Below are positions 1 through 51,831 of a DNA stretch of 51,831 bases, one piece after another. The stretch covers positions 1 to 51,831 of the forward strand of contig JAHIHZ010000011.1 in assembly GCA_018899555.1 (NCBI GenBank). Direction: 5' to 3'. The notes beneath the pieces are model-generated. The model worked only from the letters and a program-made list of their open reading frames with translations, was not told the DNA's origin and ran no database searches. Every line of letters starts with the position of its first letter. Positions within the stretch are counted from its first letter, which is position 1. The stretch is from Patescibacteria group bacterium. GTDB lineage: Bacteria; Patescibacteriota; Minisyncoccia; Phycocordibacterales; 21-14-all-36-13. Made by a program: the position numbers and the translations under genes.

Positions 1-148
1 AATTTAAATAATCCTGCCCTGATTTAAAACTATCTTTATCCCTCACAACAAATTCTTTATCTTTTTGAAAAAACAAAAAATACAAACCGATTACAATTAC
101 TATTATTAAAATAATCGTGACCCAAATTAAATTTTTTTTATTATTCAT
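1..148 (-). CDS. hypothetical membrane-anchored protein, N-terminal fragment (gene runs off window start)
   Basis: ATG at 146-148 (minus) opens a frame reading MNNKKNLIWVTIILIIVIVIGLYFLFF..., a short basic N-terminus followed by one hydrophobic helix. The frame stays open to the window edge. Confidence 0.3.
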   Translation of the reverse strand, partial: MNNKKNLIWVTIILIIVIVIGLYFLFFQKDKEFVVRDKDSFKSGQDYLN

Positions 149-438
149 ATTTTTAGATTAAAAACTTTAACCCCCACTTGGAGGCTTCGCCTCCAAGTTA
201 AATTAAAATCAAAAATTAATTACAAAAATTATACAAAAAATTCCGCGCTAAATACACAGAATTTTAGTGGATAACTTTTTTTTACACCTCCTGTCGCTAT
301 AGCGACAGGAGGTGTAAAAATGATTTGAAGATTTGTTTTAATCCTTGAATAAAAATATTATGGATGAAAAATGTCCTTAGGGACATTTTCCCAAAAAACA
401 AAAAATTGTGGATGAAAATTGCCGCTTAGTGACAATTT

Positions 439-2352
439 TCATTTATTTTTATTTTTATTGTCTACTTTCAAAACACTTCTTAAAACTTCTTCTGGAATTT
501 CTTTTTGTTCGGTTTCGGGCTTTTTACTTGCCCCGAGTGTGGTCGAGAGATTTTCTTCTTTTATTTCAGTTTCTTTTTCTCTTTTGTAATCTTGTTCAGT
601 TTTATTTTGAGCTGTTTCTGTTACATCTGTATTTTTATTTGAAATGGTTTCTTCCCCGCTAACATTGTTAGAGATTAACATCTCACCATTTTTTTTGGTT
701 TCACTAAGAATTTCGCTTAGTGCCTCTCTGAGAGCAAAAACATTTTCCTCCGACATTTTTTTCTTTCTTTCAATTGACCTTTTTGCCTCTTCAACCGGCT
801 TTAAGTAATTAAGCGAAATAGCTTTTCTAAATTCTTCTTCATTGCTTTGTGTTTTAAATGGTTTATAAAAATTATTCTTTTTAAAATTATCGCGACGATC
901 ATTATTTTGTTTAAAATTATTCTTTTCTGTCAAATTTTTGTCTTCGTTTTTATTTTCAATTTTTTTGTTTTCAGTTTTATTTTCTGTTTTATCATTTAAA
1001 AAATTATTTTTTCGAAAATTACTAGAATTAGTTGGTTGACTGTTTTTTCTTTCCGCTTTATTTGTACTCGTGTGCCATTCAATAATATATTTCTCAACTT
1101 CAGCGCGCGGTTTAGCAAATCTTTTTCTTGAGTTTTCAATTATTCTTTCCCTATAAGAAACCGGTGGTGCTGTTATCGGTGGCATGGTTCTAGCAGAAAA
1201 CGGCTGTGAGCTTATACCGTCTATTAATAATTTAAGATAAACCTGTGCAAATCCAAGATTAACCAAATCTTCTGGAGTAAATTGCGGAGCAAATTCTTTT
1301 TCTAATTCTTTTGCATCATTCGCGCCAATACGAAAAACTATCATAGTTCCAACATTGCCAAATACCGCCGCCTTTACTTCATCTTGCATTTGTTCTATAT
1401 ATTGATGCGCAATATTCAAATTCAATTTGTATTTTCTCGCCTCTGATAAAATATTCGCAAATGATTCGTTGGCGAAGGACTGGAACTCATCAACATGAAG
1501 ATAAAAATTTGGAAGTTTTTTTAATTCTTCTTGTGAAACATCGGCGCGAGACATTGATGCTAAATAAATTTTTGTTATTAACATCCCGCCTAAAAGATTT
1601 GCATTTGCCTCACCCACTTTTCCTTTTGATAAGTTTATTATTACTATTTTCTTGTTGTCTTCCATTTCTCTGAAATCAAAACTTGAGTGTGGTTGGCCTA
1701 TTATATTTCTTATAAGCGGGTTCGATATAAACTGGCCAACCTTGTTTTGTATCGCAGCACCAGCTTCTTGCATATATCTATCATTATATTTTGCAAACTC
1801 ATCTAACCAAAATGCCTTTACTGATACATCGCTCACATTATCAACAACCATTTTTCTATATTCTCTGTCCGCTAACATTCTATTAACTCCGAGAAGTGTT
1901 GCCTCTGGGTACTCTAAAAGAGCCAATAAAATATTATTTAAAATATATTCCATTCTTGCAGACCATGCGTCAATCCATATTTTTTTAAACGCGCTCATTA
2001 GACCATTAGCAACAAGATGCCTTTTATCAATGCCAACATCTTCCATTACATTAAATGAAATTGGGTAATCTAAATCAAAAGGAGCAAAATAAAGAACATC
2101 ATTAATCCTATTTTCTGGAACATAATCAAGAAGTAGTTCAGCTGATTTCCCGTGTGGGTCGACAAAGGCGATTCCGTTCCCATTTTGAATATCCTGAATA
2201 GCCATATTTTCAAGGAGAGTGGATTTGCCGGTTCCTGTTTTTCCTATTACATAAACATGTCTTATTCTATCTGCCTCTTTTATACCAAATCTAGTTTTAT
2301 TATTTCTATAATCGGTCTCAGCAAAATATGTAATTTTATTTTCATTTGCCAT
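439..2352 (-). CDS. VirD4/TraD-like (type IV secretion coupling-protein family) P-loop NTPase with K/N/E-rich low-complexity C-terminal tail
   Basis: 637-aa ORF. Walker A motif VIGKTGTGKST. The overall pattern (FVDPHG..., HVDEFQ Walker B-like, TraM-recognition-type core) is typical of T4SS DNA-binding coupling ATPases. The last ~200 aa are lysine/asparagine/glutamate repeats. Confidence 0.7.
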   Translation of the reverse strand: MANENKITYFAETDYRNNKTRFGIKEADRIRHVYVIGKTGTGKSTLLENMAIQDIQNGNGIAFVDPHGKSAELLLDYVPENRINDVLYFAPFDLDYPISFNVMEDVGIDKRHLVANGLMSAFKKIWIDAWSARMEYILNNILLALLEYPEATLLGVNRMLADREYRKMVVDNVSDVSVKAFWLDEFAKYNDRYMQEAGAAIQNKVGQFISNPLIRNIIGQPHSSFDFREMEDNKKIVIINLSKGKVGEANANLLGGMLITKIYLASMSRADVSQEELKKLPNFYLHVDEFQSFANESFANILSEARKYKLNLNIAHQYIEQMQDEVKAAVFGNVGTMIVFRIGANDAKELEKEFAPQFTPEDLVNLGFAQVYLKLLIDGISSQPFSARTMPPITAPPVSYRERIIENSRKRFAKPRAEVEKYIIEWHTSTNKAERKNSQPTNSSNFRKNNFLNDKTENKTENKKIENKNEDKNLTEKNNFKQNNDRRDNFKKNNFYKPFKTQSNEEEFRKAISLNYLKPVEEAKRSIERKKKMSEENVFALREALSEILSETKKNGEMLISNNVSGEETISNKNTDVTETAQNKTEQDYKREKETEIKEENLSTTLGASKKPETEQKEIPEEVLRSVLKVDNKNKNK

Positions 2353-2380
2353 TGTGTTAATTATAGAATGTTTATAGAAA

Positions 2381-2409
2381 TAAAAAAAGCCGTTTATAAC
2401 AAACGGCTT
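2381..2409 (-). terminator. rho-independent terminator after small ORF 2419-2619
   Basis: On the minus strand, AAGCCGTTT-loop-AAACGGCTT is followed by a T-run. It lies 10 nt after the stop of the upstream ORF. Confidence 0.6.
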
Positions 2410-2418
2410 AATAAAATA

Positions 2419-2619
2419 TTAGGAACCCTCCCATGATTCTAAATAATATCCGCCATCTTCTTTGGAGAAAACCGGACATAAACCAACACTACCTATTAAA
2501 AAATCCGACAGTTGGTCTATGCTTTCTTCTCCTTTGTATCCAAATTCATTGGCGGATTTTAAAAAGAGTTCTTCTCTAGTCAACCACGATCTATTTTTTT
2601 TGTTTTTTCCACTTTCCAC
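2419..2619 (-). CDS. small hypothetical protein (66 aa)
   Basis: Intact ORF with non-repetitive composition and its own terminator hairpin. No recognisable family. Confidence 0.45.
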   Translation of the reverse strand: MESGKNKKNRSWLTREELFLKSANEFGYKGEESIDQLSDFLIGSVGLCPVFSKEDGGYYLESWEGS

Positions 2620-2852
2620 TCCATTTTTTATTAATAGAATTCATAATCCAGAGATGGGATATCACTGAAAGAAATTAGTGTCAAATTTTATTTCCGGTTT
2701 AAAATAACATTATACTTCTGCTATCATGGGGATACGACATCATTTCTGTTTTTATGATTTAGTGATTTAGTGATTTTTAAAATACAAAACATTATGGATT
2801 CAAATGCTCATTATAGAGCATTTGAATTTAGTGATTTAGTGATTTAGTGATT

Positions 2853-50458: not shown

Positions 50459-50780
50459 CGTTCTGGTATTCGGAGTTTGATTGGTCTAGTGAGATTGCTC
50501 CCTATCCAGACCATCCAGTGCTCTACCCCCAGAAGGTAATCTAAACGCTAGCCCTAAAGCTATTTCGGAGAGAACCAGCTATTACCAGGTTCGATTAGCT
50601 TTTCACTCCTACCCACAACTCATCCGATGGTTTTGCACGGCCAACCGGTTCGGGCCTCCCTCTATCTTTCGACAGAGTTCACCCTGGTCATAGGTAGCTC
50701 ACCTGGCTTCGGGTCTTACATATACTACACCTGCAATAAAGCAGAACGCGCTTTTGACACTCGGTTTCCCTTAGACTCCA

Positions 50781-50855
50781 CCCAGCCGTAGTTTTCGAAA
50801 ACTTATGAGGTAGTAATAAAAACAAATCAAAACTACTTCAAAAACTACGGCTGGG
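50781..50855 (-). other. expansion at 23S helix 25 (classical IVS site)
   Basis: CCCAGCCGTAGTTTT...AAAACTACGGCTGGG is a long hairpin in the position of helix 25. Confidence 0.6.
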
Positions 50856-50911
50856 CTTAGTCAAGCAATATATATAAACTCGTTGGCTCATTCTTCAATA
50901 GGCACACCGTC

Positions 50912-51171
50912 GCCGTTGCATCTCGCTAGGCAATATGCAACGGAAAATCACAAACCACAAGCACCAAAACACAAATTTATCCCGCCTGCCTGCAGTAGGC
51001 AGGTAGCTTCACGAAGTGAATGGTATGGGACAAAACATAATTACCAAAATTCAAAAATCAAAACTCAAAACTTTTTTATTTGAAATTTGGAAATTAGAAT
51101 TTAGAATTTATTTGTAATTTGGGATTTGTTTATTGGAATTTCCGTGCATCTCACACAGTGAGATGCAACGG
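50912..51171 (-). repeat. 260-nt composite expansion in 23S domain I/II (AC-rich arm, GC module, GU-rich arm)
   Basis: Contains AATCACAAACCACAAGCACCAAAACACAAA, the TTATCCCGCCTGCCTGCAGTAGGCAGG...GGTATGGGACAAA module (also intergenic at 32520-32577), and TTTGTAATTTGGGATTTGTTTATTGG. Confidence 0.75.
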
Positions 51172-51506
51172 CTCCGATTCCTTGTAGACATATGGTTTCA
51201 GGTCTATTTCACTCCCCTCTCCGGGGTTCTTTTCACCTTTCCCTCACGGTACTTGTTCACTATCGATCTCTAAGAGTATTTAGCCTTACCAGTTAGTTCT
51301 GGCAGATTCTCTCAAGCCATTCGTGTCTTGAGATACTCAGGAACATCAACAAAGAAGTATATGAAATTTCGTTTAAGGGGCTATCACTCTCTAGGGCCAA
51401 GCTTTCCAGCTTGTTCAACTATTTCACATATTTATAACTTCTCTTGCATAAATGCAACATTAATGTCCTACAACACCAGCCATACCTCACTAAGTTCGGT
51501 CTGTCT

Positions 51507-51668
51507 GGAAATCACAAATCACAAGCACCAAAACACAAACAAAACACAATTACCAAAATTCAAAAACCAAAACCTTTTTGTTTGAGATTTGAAAATTAGA
51601 ATTTAGAATTTATTTGTAATTTGGAATTTGTTTATTGGAATTTCCGTGCTGAACACAGTGAGGCACGG
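51507..51668 (-). repeat. 160-nt long imperfect hairpin expansion in 23S domain I, paralogous to 50912-51171
   Basis: An AAATCACAAATCACAAGCACCAAAACACAAAC... arm faces a ...TTTGTAATTTGGAATTTGTTTATTGGAATTT arm. It closes with CCGTGCTGAACACAGTGAGGCACGG. Confidence 0.75.
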
Positions 51669-51831
51669 CCGGTTTGGGCTTCTCCCGTTTCGCTCGCCGC
51701 TACTAAGGGAATCGCGAGCTTTGCTTTTTGCCCGCTGTAAAGAAAAGACAATATTTATTTCTTTATTTCTAAAGAAAAAATAATATTAATTCCTTTACCT
51801 ATTGCCTGTTCGCTTTTTAAAAATAAAAAGC

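Follow-up and report, generated by a model that had tools for sequence, protein, structure and literature searches.

Contig JAHIHZ010000011.1 of Patescibacteria group bacterium assembly GCA_018899555.1 (51,831 nucleotides, all of it analyzed and here called the window) carries several families of short palindromic and tandem-repeat modules in its spacers, ribosomal RNA (rRNA) genes, group I introns and protein-coding genes. These modules are real, repeated, and gained and lost between close relatives. Judged by sequence, at least three of the families, here called a, b and c2, are unrelated, and each matches the inverted-repeat frame of a different tiny open reading frame (ORF) in other bacteria, namely GxxExxY, 23S_rRNA_IVP and small GIY-YIG genes, respectively; we believe this correspondence to be new. 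Because the matching frames enclose tiny nuclease or helix-bundle genes in other bacteria, we consider it probable that a, b and c2 are mostly gene-less shells of very small selfish cassettes, resembling MITEs (miniature inverted-repeat transposable elements) in spacers and intervening sequences (IVS) in rRNA. The initial annotation had described one REP-, MITE- or Rickettsia-like repeat system with a wide range of targets. Small palindromic elements at many kinds of target are indeed present; a single system is not, and the interpretation is corrected here to separate families with separate cassette frames.

The families are found where that annotation placed them, and their matches are in excess over shuffled sequence. 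The class-a doublet ATCTGCGNNNATCTGCG (up to one mismatch) has 19 matches in the window against 0.00 expected, the c2 arm ACCCTGTTAAAT has 9 against 0.54, and the motif of a fourth family, module d (TTRTGGATKMAAA), has 19 against 2.7. Bases repeated elsewhere in the window make up 31% of spacer DNA, compared with 5% of coding DNA and 0% in shuffles. A 111-nt block at 98% identity is common to variable region V1 of the 16S rRNA gene (9918-10028) and helix 63 (H63) of the 23S rRNA gene (49161-49271), and a 121-nt block at 80% identity links a spacer (32488-32608) to 23S H25 (50944-51064). Named modules occupy rRNA variable helices at 16S V1 and V3 and at 23S about 278, 540 (H25), 925 and 1704-1731 (H63); these positions follow E. 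coli numbering from a rough pairwise alignment to E. coli rRNA and are approximate, as are the helix assignments. Two group I introns likewise carry class-a modules in their 3' parts (44838-44878 and 46901-46945). The reported presence of modules within rRNA genes and introns is borne out, while for ORFs it is certain in ligA and probable in a TP_methylase ORF. Nesting of modules was likewise confirmed, with c2 (49282-49339) located between heptamer units of a class-a element. The statement that almost every spacer is modular is too strong, because only 16 of the 32 spacers of at least 40 nt bear a named family, or 22 of 32 when perfect hairpins of at least 8 bp are counted. Rfam searches at the gathering threshold (window) and at E up to 1 (five array-bearing loci) returned no match on the modules.

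The class-a unit consists of four ATCWGCG heptamers spaced start to start by 10, 12-14 and 10 nt; in many cases a 7-bp GNA-triloop hairpin comes next. Within rRNA, such arms come as a facing pair, in the order (rRNA sense) stem H1, four CGCAGAT, a 13-nt AT loop, four ATCWGCG, and stem H2. Six aligned copies define this rRNA element as 147 nt long with sharp boundaries; composites in general measure 135-147 nt and are short, non-coding sequences with two four-unit arms as terminal inverted repeats. One composite (9920-10066, minus strand; H1 reads TCTTGTC-TAC-GACAAGA in the rRNA sense) sits at the tip of 16S helix 6 in V1, and a second palindrome (9098-9236, minus strand), with inverted ATCYGCG arrays and terminal triloop hairpins, sits at the tip of helix 17 in V3. 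Two further composites on the minus strand, in 23S H63 (49161-49373) and, more diverged, at about 925 (50323-50462), both contain a nested c2 between heptamer units, the latter at 50360-50418. Two class-a copies of a related genome hold a small nested TTATCCCGCC hairpin. In the group I intron at 23S ~2593, a half element of four units plus the hairpin TTTGTTAC-GAA-GTAACAAA is located at the 3' end (44820-44886, minus strand), and a four-unit array lies in the 3' part of the intron at ~2262 (46901-46945, minus strand). The same 19-nt hairpin is also present at the 3' end of the 16S intron, in opposite orientation (8240-8258, compared with 44820-44838 in the ~2593 intron).

Outside the rRNA genes, all on the plus strand, class-a arrays are found upstream of 16S (11155-11301; five copies of GTCCGCGTTAA, degenerate units, four ATCTGCG and the hairpin AATTTTGCGAAAGCAAAATT), in frame in ligA at a surface loop of the adenylation domain (17171-17211), directly 3' of a pilin-like gene behind an (AAATGTT)x7 tandem (19355-19447), directly 3' of pilC (23102-23141), and, in a degenerate form built of GTCCGCG, GTCTGCG and ATCCGCG, at the pilM 3' end (30502-30552).

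Insertion polymorphism of these elements is supported by comparison with a sister genome (L204), a related metagenome-assembled genome (MAG; L087) and a strain whose LigA is identical to that of the window (L207). The outcomes that the initial annotation named as refuting its view did not arise: the modules turn up again in other genomes, related and unrelated, their matches outnumber those in shuffles, and orthologous loci differ between relatives, with empty and filled sites. In L204, whose flanking 16S sequence is 94-95% identical, short, plain helix tips stand in place of the 147-nt V1 element, the V3 element of about 120 nt and the group I intron. L087 carries the 147-nt element at 80-95% identity at three 23S sites; at two of these, ~278 and H45, the window has different inserts, and at the third the window counterpart is the diverged class-a copy with c2 inside. 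The H45 copy of L087 is 95% identical to the V1 element of the window. A Liptonbacteria genome (53% GC, lineage by record name) has the element outside rRNA with identical H1 and H2 stems. Spacers of L204 hold the same module classes as the window at other positions. Protein genes differ in the same manner: the LigA loop that holds the class-a array is short and free of inserts in most LigA homologues, other Paceibacteria have different inserts in this loop, and c2 in frame adds 12-15 residues to LigA and GatA in L204 only, as the LigA homologues compared and the GatA of the window are all without them. Loop inserts such as ..ADSRGLNADLRR.. and ..SLRGAERRGNP.. occur in LigA homologues P0003, P0005, P0007, P0011, P0012, P0016 and P0022. 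From their residues, these inserts of other Paceibacteria could be encoded by CGCAGAT- or CGCAGAG-type arrays.

The window and L207 have 0 mismatches in 22 kb and differ by only two indels totaling 36 gap positions. As placed by gene-call offsets, the (AAATGTT)n spacer at 19339-19452 is 14 nt longer in L207, and the region from gatA to a 135-aa ORF (about 11004-12020), which contains (GTCCGCGTTAA)n, is 22 nt shorter. These lengths suggest slippage of two units each in a 7-nt and an 11-nt tandem array. In principle, all of the modules might have arisen and spread with no dedicated machinery, through replication slippage, template switching driven by hairpins, and gene conversion among dispersed copies, in a genome that is AT-rich and under relaxed selection. 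That the sole differences between strains with identical LigA are indels in tandem-array spacers, that array size varies from 3 to 12 units, and that many hairpins are unique in sequence would all be expected on this account. Slippage, however, cannot place a sharp-ended 147-nt element at unrelated 16S, 23S and spacer sites of different genomes, nor can these processes conserve the 10/12-14/10 four-unit layout and the c2 inverted repeat across phyla, and the tie to specific ORF families is left unexplained. We regard this explanation as improbable.

Class-a arrays extend well beyond the Patescibacteria. The pattern ATCTGCG-N3-ATCTGCG-N5-7-ATCTGCG specifies 21 bases and should match by chance about once in the 596 Gb searched, yet at least 119 stretches matched. 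The matches listed include Bacteroidota, Ignavibacteria, several Patescibacteria, Acidobacteria, Planctomycetes, Omnitrophota, Elusimicrobia, Anaerolineae and a cyanobacterium. Among these same matches, arrays range from 3 to 12 units, and 139 of 206 have exactly four, the fourth unit being absent from the search pattern. Arrays elsewhere are mostly intergenic and often stand beside inverted partners or other heptamer runs, as they do in the window; their orientation relative to flanking genes is mixed and follows no consistent rule. Viral stretches with the motifs numbered only 3 and 2, and a GIY-YIG ORF occurred in none. In a Terrimonas MAG (L012, 4940-5150) and at similar Chitinophagaceae loci, class-a arms face inward around a loop of ~45 nt, after ~80 nt of (AGTAGAA)n, the same pairing of heptamer run and array as at 19355-19447 of the window.

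The breadth of these matches bears on whether the modules could be chimeric joins or collapsed reads. The window does derive from a MAG, and some of the matched genomes are mislabelled, for example a 'Citrobacter' MAG with Terrimonas-type elements. Class-a arrays are nonetheless also present in cultured isolates (Runella defluvii DSM 17976, Arcicella, Seramator and Polluticaenibacter). The window sequence itself is matched by contig JAHIFN010000004.1 of MAG GCA_018900715.1, and four independent assemblies (two NCBI MAGs, one ENA and one Logan) reproduce it at 99.8-100% identity, which makes an assembly or binning artefact highly improbable. Loci L002, L003 and L208 are identical in sequence to the window (same strain) and were set aside as uninformative.

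By ORF clustering, the most recurrent neighbor of class-a arrays is a GxxExxY gene of ~125 aa (TIGR04256, E = 5e-38; Pfam PF13366, PDDEXK_3), found at nine loci. At two Draconibacterium loci (L062 and L090) this gene lies exactly between four CGCAGAT and four ATCTGCG, which is the frame of the rRNA element of the window with the ORF in place of the 13-nt loop. The association was also approached from the protein side with 80 GxxExxY loci from metagenomes, chosen by protein similarity alone, of which 64 had enough flank on both sides. A GC-containing hexamer present at least twice on one side, with its complement at least twice on the other, was found at 32 of these 64 loci, compared with 2 of 53 control ORFs from the same loci. 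The flanking units are related (ATCTGCG, CTCTGC/T, CTTTGC, ATCTGT) and often come in fours; one locus has CACGAAT units. Comparison of the GxxExxY profile with the PDB by sequence gave no match, and GxxExxY/PF13366 appears in the open-access literature in catalogue mentions only.

The second frame is that of 23S_rRNA_IVP genes (PF05635, four-helix bundle). Three such ORFs in the array loci are framed by (AAATCCN)n or (GAAGTTN)n with the complement on the opposite side, and three more, found by protein search, are framed likewise; their neighbors are pilB and pilC in one case, rpmB and a protease gene in another, and two unnamed genes in the remaining one. All six independent loci are thus framed by heptamer runs, and none of them was shown to lie in rRNA. 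The framing runs correspond to module b, the 'CACAAATCACAAA-type' runs of the initial annotation, which also build the stems of the window inserts at H25 and ~278. The H25 insertion, at a classical IVS site (50922-51170, minus strand), has AC-rich and GU-rich heptamer arms that form a long stem, with a module called c1 (50975-51033) inside; its predicted RNA fold has an energy of -86.9 kcal/mol and a z-score of -7.2. The class-b-arm insertion at about 278 (51436-51658, minus strand), where L087 has a class-a element instead, folds with z = -4.8. Between 44 and 83 pairs are predicted per rRNA insert.

Other class-b runs in the window lie on the plus strand: a TTTGTGA/TTTGGAA run in the spacer beside tRNA-Ile (6245-6307), an AC-rich run upstream of a 192/202-aa ORF (11884-11942), and a run with c1 (32520-32577) in a spacer (32484-32612), which is the sequence 80% identical to the H25 insert. 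A further run (5123-5156, plus strand) is in frame in the TP_methylase (rsmI-like) ORF, where it encodes ..SKSQNTNHKLQ... The ORF is presumably about 10 aa longer than E. coli RsmI, and the run is probably an in-frame insertion.

The third frame, c2, encloses GIY-YIG genes. L204 has an 86-aa GIY-YIG ORF (PF01541 family) framed by TTTACCCTGTTAAATAA and TTATTTAACAGGGTTAA, the right arm lying in the last codons of the ORF. Homologues share 75-85% identity and come from lineages named Moranbacteria, Patescibacteria, Nanoarchaeota and Udaeobacter. Loci L204, L224/L233 and L239 all have the gene within the c2 inverted repeat, and L234 has it within a variant of the repeat. The repeat is present at a locus between glycosyltransferase genes whose protein is named Candidatus Udaeobacter at NCBI, and the Moranbacteria locus has a variant inverted repeat. 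Neither class a nor the c2-framed GIY-YIG gene is peculiar to the window genome, since both are present in several phyla. In metagenome contigs L224-L232 (71-698), the c2-framed GIY-YIG gene is nested within a bAvd/IVP four-helix-bundle ORF that is split, and a second GIY-YIG gene is found immediately upstream; mini-genes can therefore nest in other mini-genes.

Copies of c2 in the window are without an ORF. They measure 57-59 nt with a 12-16-nt inverted repeat, and stand free at 27900-27958 (plus strand; outer repeat ACCCTGTTAAAT/ATTTAACAGGGC around two short hairpins) and near the 23S 3' end at 43620-43676 (plus strand). In six copies, four from the window and two from L204, the outer repeat is kept while two inner hairpins, different in sequence in every copy, replace the ORF. 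The window does have a GIY-YIG mini-cassette of its own in the 16S V2 insertion (9525-9833, minus strand), in which an 87-aa ORF (9538-9801) is framed by a 24-nt inverted repeat (9810-9833/9525-9548). The earlier remark that no transposase is present needs qualification in this respect, as this ORF and two LAGLIDADG ORFs lie in or beside the rRNA genes; a scan of 30 long window ORFs against Pfam gave no match to Y1_Tnp.

On the reading that we favor, a full cassette would consist of one tiny ORF within a family-specific inverted-repeat frame. The class-a cassette would have two arms of four ATCWGCG (10/12-14/10 nt) around the ~125-aa GxxExxY PD-(D/E)XK nuclease, the arms being capped in Patescibacteria by the 7-bp GNA-triloop hairpin. 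The putative b cassette would place (AAATCAN)n and (NTGATTT)n around a ~125-aa four-helix-bundle 23S_rRNA_IVP protein, and the c2 cassette TTTACCCTGTTAAATAA and TTATTTAACAGGGTGAA around an 84-86-aa GIY-YIG nuclease. Copies in the window lack this ORF, with the arms joined by a short loop or small hairpins. Since the arms pair, an insertion would merely lengthen an existing hairpin or surface loop, so that copies survive at rRNA helix tips, at intron 3' peripheries, after stop codons and in frame in protein loops (LigA, GatA and probably RsmI). We infer that nucleases of full-length cassettes located elsewhere would move the shells, by break-and-repair copying or a transposition-like step, and that rRNA copies would be removed by RNase III as in classical IVS or kept as expansion segments.

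Several observations weigh against this reading. No target-site duplication was seen in the flanks of the six aligned class-a copies, and the comparison of empty and filled 16S sites is too diverged to be exact for duplications. Many class-a copies in the window are single arms and not palindromes. Exact ATCWGCG occurs in only 4-5 of the 80 protein-selected GxxExxY loci, the rest having CTCTGY, CTTTGC, ATCTGT and similar units. The window contains neither a GxxExxY nor an IVP gene, and an enzyme source in trans is hypothetical. Only the ~278 insert folds markedly differently on the two strands, and this comparison therefore gives no sign of selection at the RNA level. Modules c1 and d have no ORF partner.

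The association of frame and ORF also gives no direction, and the ORFs could be secondary invaders of palindromes that already existed. The frames might then have come first and served the host, as protein-binding arrays, terminators or RNase III stems, with tiny nuclease and IVP genes later homing into the palindrome loops as their targets. Four units at a spacing of one helical turn do resemble a binding array, arrays and module-d hairpins stand shortly after stop codons, and L204 retains an array (8584-8635) upstream of 16S at the place orthologous to that of the window. The arms around ORFs occur in both relative orientations, and the nesting of mini-genes in other mini-genes would likewise be expected of genes that home into palindromes. 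A host site would not be expected in frame in ligA or gatA, however, or at differing rRNA helix tips of close relatives. The mixed orientation of arrays to neighboring genes also fits a host function poorly, and a copying process is needed in any case to account for nearly identical 147-nt elements in 16S, 23S and other genomes. A host origin of the frames therefore seems unlikely to us, and we retain gene-less shells as the preferred reading.

Bacterial rRNA IVS are found at 23S helices 25 and 45, some with a 23S_rRNA_IVP ORF, in Leptospira, Coxiella and Salmonella. The window inserts resemble them in their position at helix tips, including H25 (about 540) and about 1178 of 23S and helices 6 and 17 of 16S, in their long stems (the z-scores of -7.2 and -4.8), in the IVP or GIY-YIG ORFs reported for inserts of relatives, and in their sporadic distribution. 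They differ in that the same sequences also fill spacers, introns and protein genes, and in that the arms are defined heptamer-array families. Like Rickettsia palindromic elements (RPEs), the elements are palindromes of about 50-150 nt that stand in frame in protein genes, in tolerant surface loops, and in RNA genes; in-frame insertions of this kind affect ligA in the window and both ligA and gatA in L204. Unlike RPEs, they occur in an unrelated host, their sequences appear dissimilar, and their frames enclose small ORFs elsewhere; we know of no gene partner for RPEs. Given the host and the motifs, a sequence relationship to RPE-1 to RPE-8 is unlikely.

Repetitive extragenic palindromic (REP) sequences, bacterial interspersed mosaic elements and REP doublet forming hairpins (REPINs) with REP-associated tyrosine transposases (RAYTs) (PMC3116915, PMC3733652) share with our elements a dispersal of short palindromes as singlets, inverted doublets and mosaics, and a small gene flanked by inverted repeat copies. 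Their defining features fail here: there is no GTAG or CGTC tag, as the units are ATCWGCG arrays, AAATCAN runs and ACCCTGTTAAAT; the flanked genes belong to PF13366, PF05635 and PF01541 (PD-(D/E)XK, four-helix bundle and GIY-YIG) and include no Y1 HUH transposase; and the window elements are not confined to extragenic DNA, occurring in rRNA, introns and ligA. As with MITEs (PMC10969869), the elements are short, non-coding, multicopy and polymorphic in insertion, with terminal inverted repeats, and longer relatives with the same ends carry an ORF (GxxExxY or GIY-YIG, in other genomes). They differ from MITEs in the lack of an observed target-site duplication, in ORF partners that are not known transposases, and in ends that are heptamer arrays and not a single inverted repeat. 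We conclude that the elements work like MITEs, IVS and RPEs.

Fungal mitochondrial GC clusters and double-hairpin elements, together with free-standing homing endonuclease genes, offer a further parallel: hairpin modules in spacers, rRNA variable regions and introns of a small AT-rich genome, near LAGLIDADG and GIY-YIG genes. Here the host is a bacterial chromosome, the sequences are other ones, and the frames are also found in other phyla, in free-living bacteria. Cassette ORFs are of the GIY-YIG or PD-(D/E)XK type, but the copies lie at many unrelated sites and are a poor fit to a single homing site.

The insertions described in rRNA genes of the Candidate Phyla Radiation (CPR) comprise introns, inserts that encode GIY-YIG or IVP proteins, and, at the H25/H45 sites, short ones called 'uncharacterised' (PMC9297842; 10.1101/2024.02.27.582315), the IVP ORFs being reported in the latter study. 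Open-access text gave no description of the repeat families, of their occurrence outside rRNA or of the pairing of frame and ORF; searches there with the exact heptamer-doublet and c2 inverted-repeat strings returned primers and unrelated matches only, and no paper on palindromic repeats in CPR was found.

More tentatively, and with rather less confidence than in the reading of the window itself, GxxExxY/PDDEXK_3, 23S_rRNA_IVP and the 84-86-aa GIY-YIG genes, all very common in bacteria, may form one unrecognised class of framed selfish mini-genes of 0.3-0.5 kb across phyla. Their gene-less frames would multiply as shells and would supply, as a main source, much of what expands the Patescibacteria genome: rRNA expansions and IVS, extensions of introns, insertions in protein loops, and spacer DNA. 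If so, the GxxExxY nuclease would recognize the four-unit ATCWGCG array as its site. The 'short uncharacterised insertions' in CPR rRNA genes would gain a concrete origin, and the unusually large spacers of a reduced genome an explanation. Three abundant families of small proteins annotated by name only, as GxxExxY, four helix bundle protein or GIY-YIG nuclease family protein, would gain a likely role and a candidate DNA partner. In several bacterial phyla, the same small elements would be reshaping rRNA helices as well as introns and protein loops.

The remaining modules of the window have other characters. Module d appears to be a separate family of intrinsic-terminator-type hairpins, as judged from its structure and placement. 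Its outer stem is conserved (GATGAAAA…TTTTCAT or GATTCAAA…TTTGAATC) around a variable core, preceded by an A-rich leader and followed by a T-rich tail. Sixteen copies were inspected in context; every one is in a spacer, the majority 20-45 nt 3' of a stop codon when read on the gene strand, and the orientation is nearly always the same. Units on the plus strand are found at 358-440 (two, 3' of a TrwB-like gene, in which TTRTGGATGAAAA opens a 13-16-bp hairpin with a variable core), 2751-2853 (one hairpin flanked on both sides by TTTAGTGA tandem runs, module e), 20065-20095 (in a 46-nt spacer), 20960-21170 (six, 3' of the prepilin peptidase gene pilD), 28455-28560 (two, 3' of pilO) and 30246-30371 (three, of which the last is the one copy called terminator-like by a simple scan). 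In the other compared loci the 13-nt motif has five scattered single matches only, and L204 shows a partial TTTTTCATCC only, at the orthologous spacer.

Two other identities for module d were set aside. Its core TTGTGGAT, present in the six copies 3' of pilD, agrees at 8 of 9 positions with the DnaA box (TGTGGATAA) taken as its reverse complement, but GC skew shows no switch at 21 kb. The sequence ATGGATGAAAAT begins some GxxExxY genes, as a leftover ORF start would, but no matching downstream arm was seen. The short tandems of module e are slippage-prone heptamer arrays of the same kind as the class-b arms. A short relative of c1 without the inner CCTGCC hairpin lies at 10390-10430 (plus strand).

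The rRNA introns and low GC content prompted consideration of an organelle. This was ruled out by the bacterial gene set of the window, which comprises type IV pilus genes (pilB, pilT-like, pilC, pilD, pilM, pilO and pilins), ligA, gatA, the TP_methylase ORF and an L,D-transpeptidase gene; the window is thus a contig of a Patescibacteria (Paceibacteria-like) MAG. The LigA protein is named 'Patescibacteria group bacterium' at NCBI, and its nearest relatives 'Candidatus Paceibacterota'.

Both rRNA genes are on the minus strand and heavily interrupted (16S at 7537-10134; 23S from 43640 to the window end). They are unlinked, the 23S lying 34 kb upstream of the 16S on the same strand, with only tRNA-Ile after the 16S. 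Group I introns interrupt 16S at ~793 and 23S at ~1921-1931, ~2262 and ~2593, the last carrying a LAGLIDADG ORF. Further long 23S inserts occur at about 2500 and 2656, and shorter ones at 16S V1, V2 and V3 and at 23S ~278, ~540 (H25), ~925, ~1178 (H45) and ~1704-1731 (H63). No named module family was identified in the H45 insertion. The insert at about 2656, in the sarcin-ricin loop region, is 828 nt long (43925-44752) and contains a 158-aa ORF (44123-44599) with no family match, and the 351-nt insert at ~2500 has no Rfam match. Region 6327-7537, 3' of the 16S end called by Rfam, contains a match to group II D1-D4 (7165-7254) and a LAGLIDADG_1 ORF (6697-7287). L204 matches block 6327-6622 at 93% identity, so that this block may hold the true 3' end of the 16S gene or an internal transcribed spacer, a group-II-like intron intervening.

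In the window (13484-15416), two ORFs lie between gatC and gatA, one for an R.Pab1-like restriction endonuclease and one of 396 aa; in L204 (5915-7931) the two gat genes directly overlap, and a c2-framed GIY-YIG gene stands ahead of gatC. A plus-strand island with inverted GC skew (34365-43400) adjoins tRNA-Ser(GCT). It contains 120-nt direct repeats (34501-34620/35031-35150, 92% identity) and a four-block internal duplication (36204-38228 versus 41158-43020, 90-95% identity). No integrase was seen among its genes, which encode Bro-N, HTH, HATPase+DUF4325, TaqI_C/Eco57I methylase, AAA_14/DUF4143, Fic and SNase proteins.

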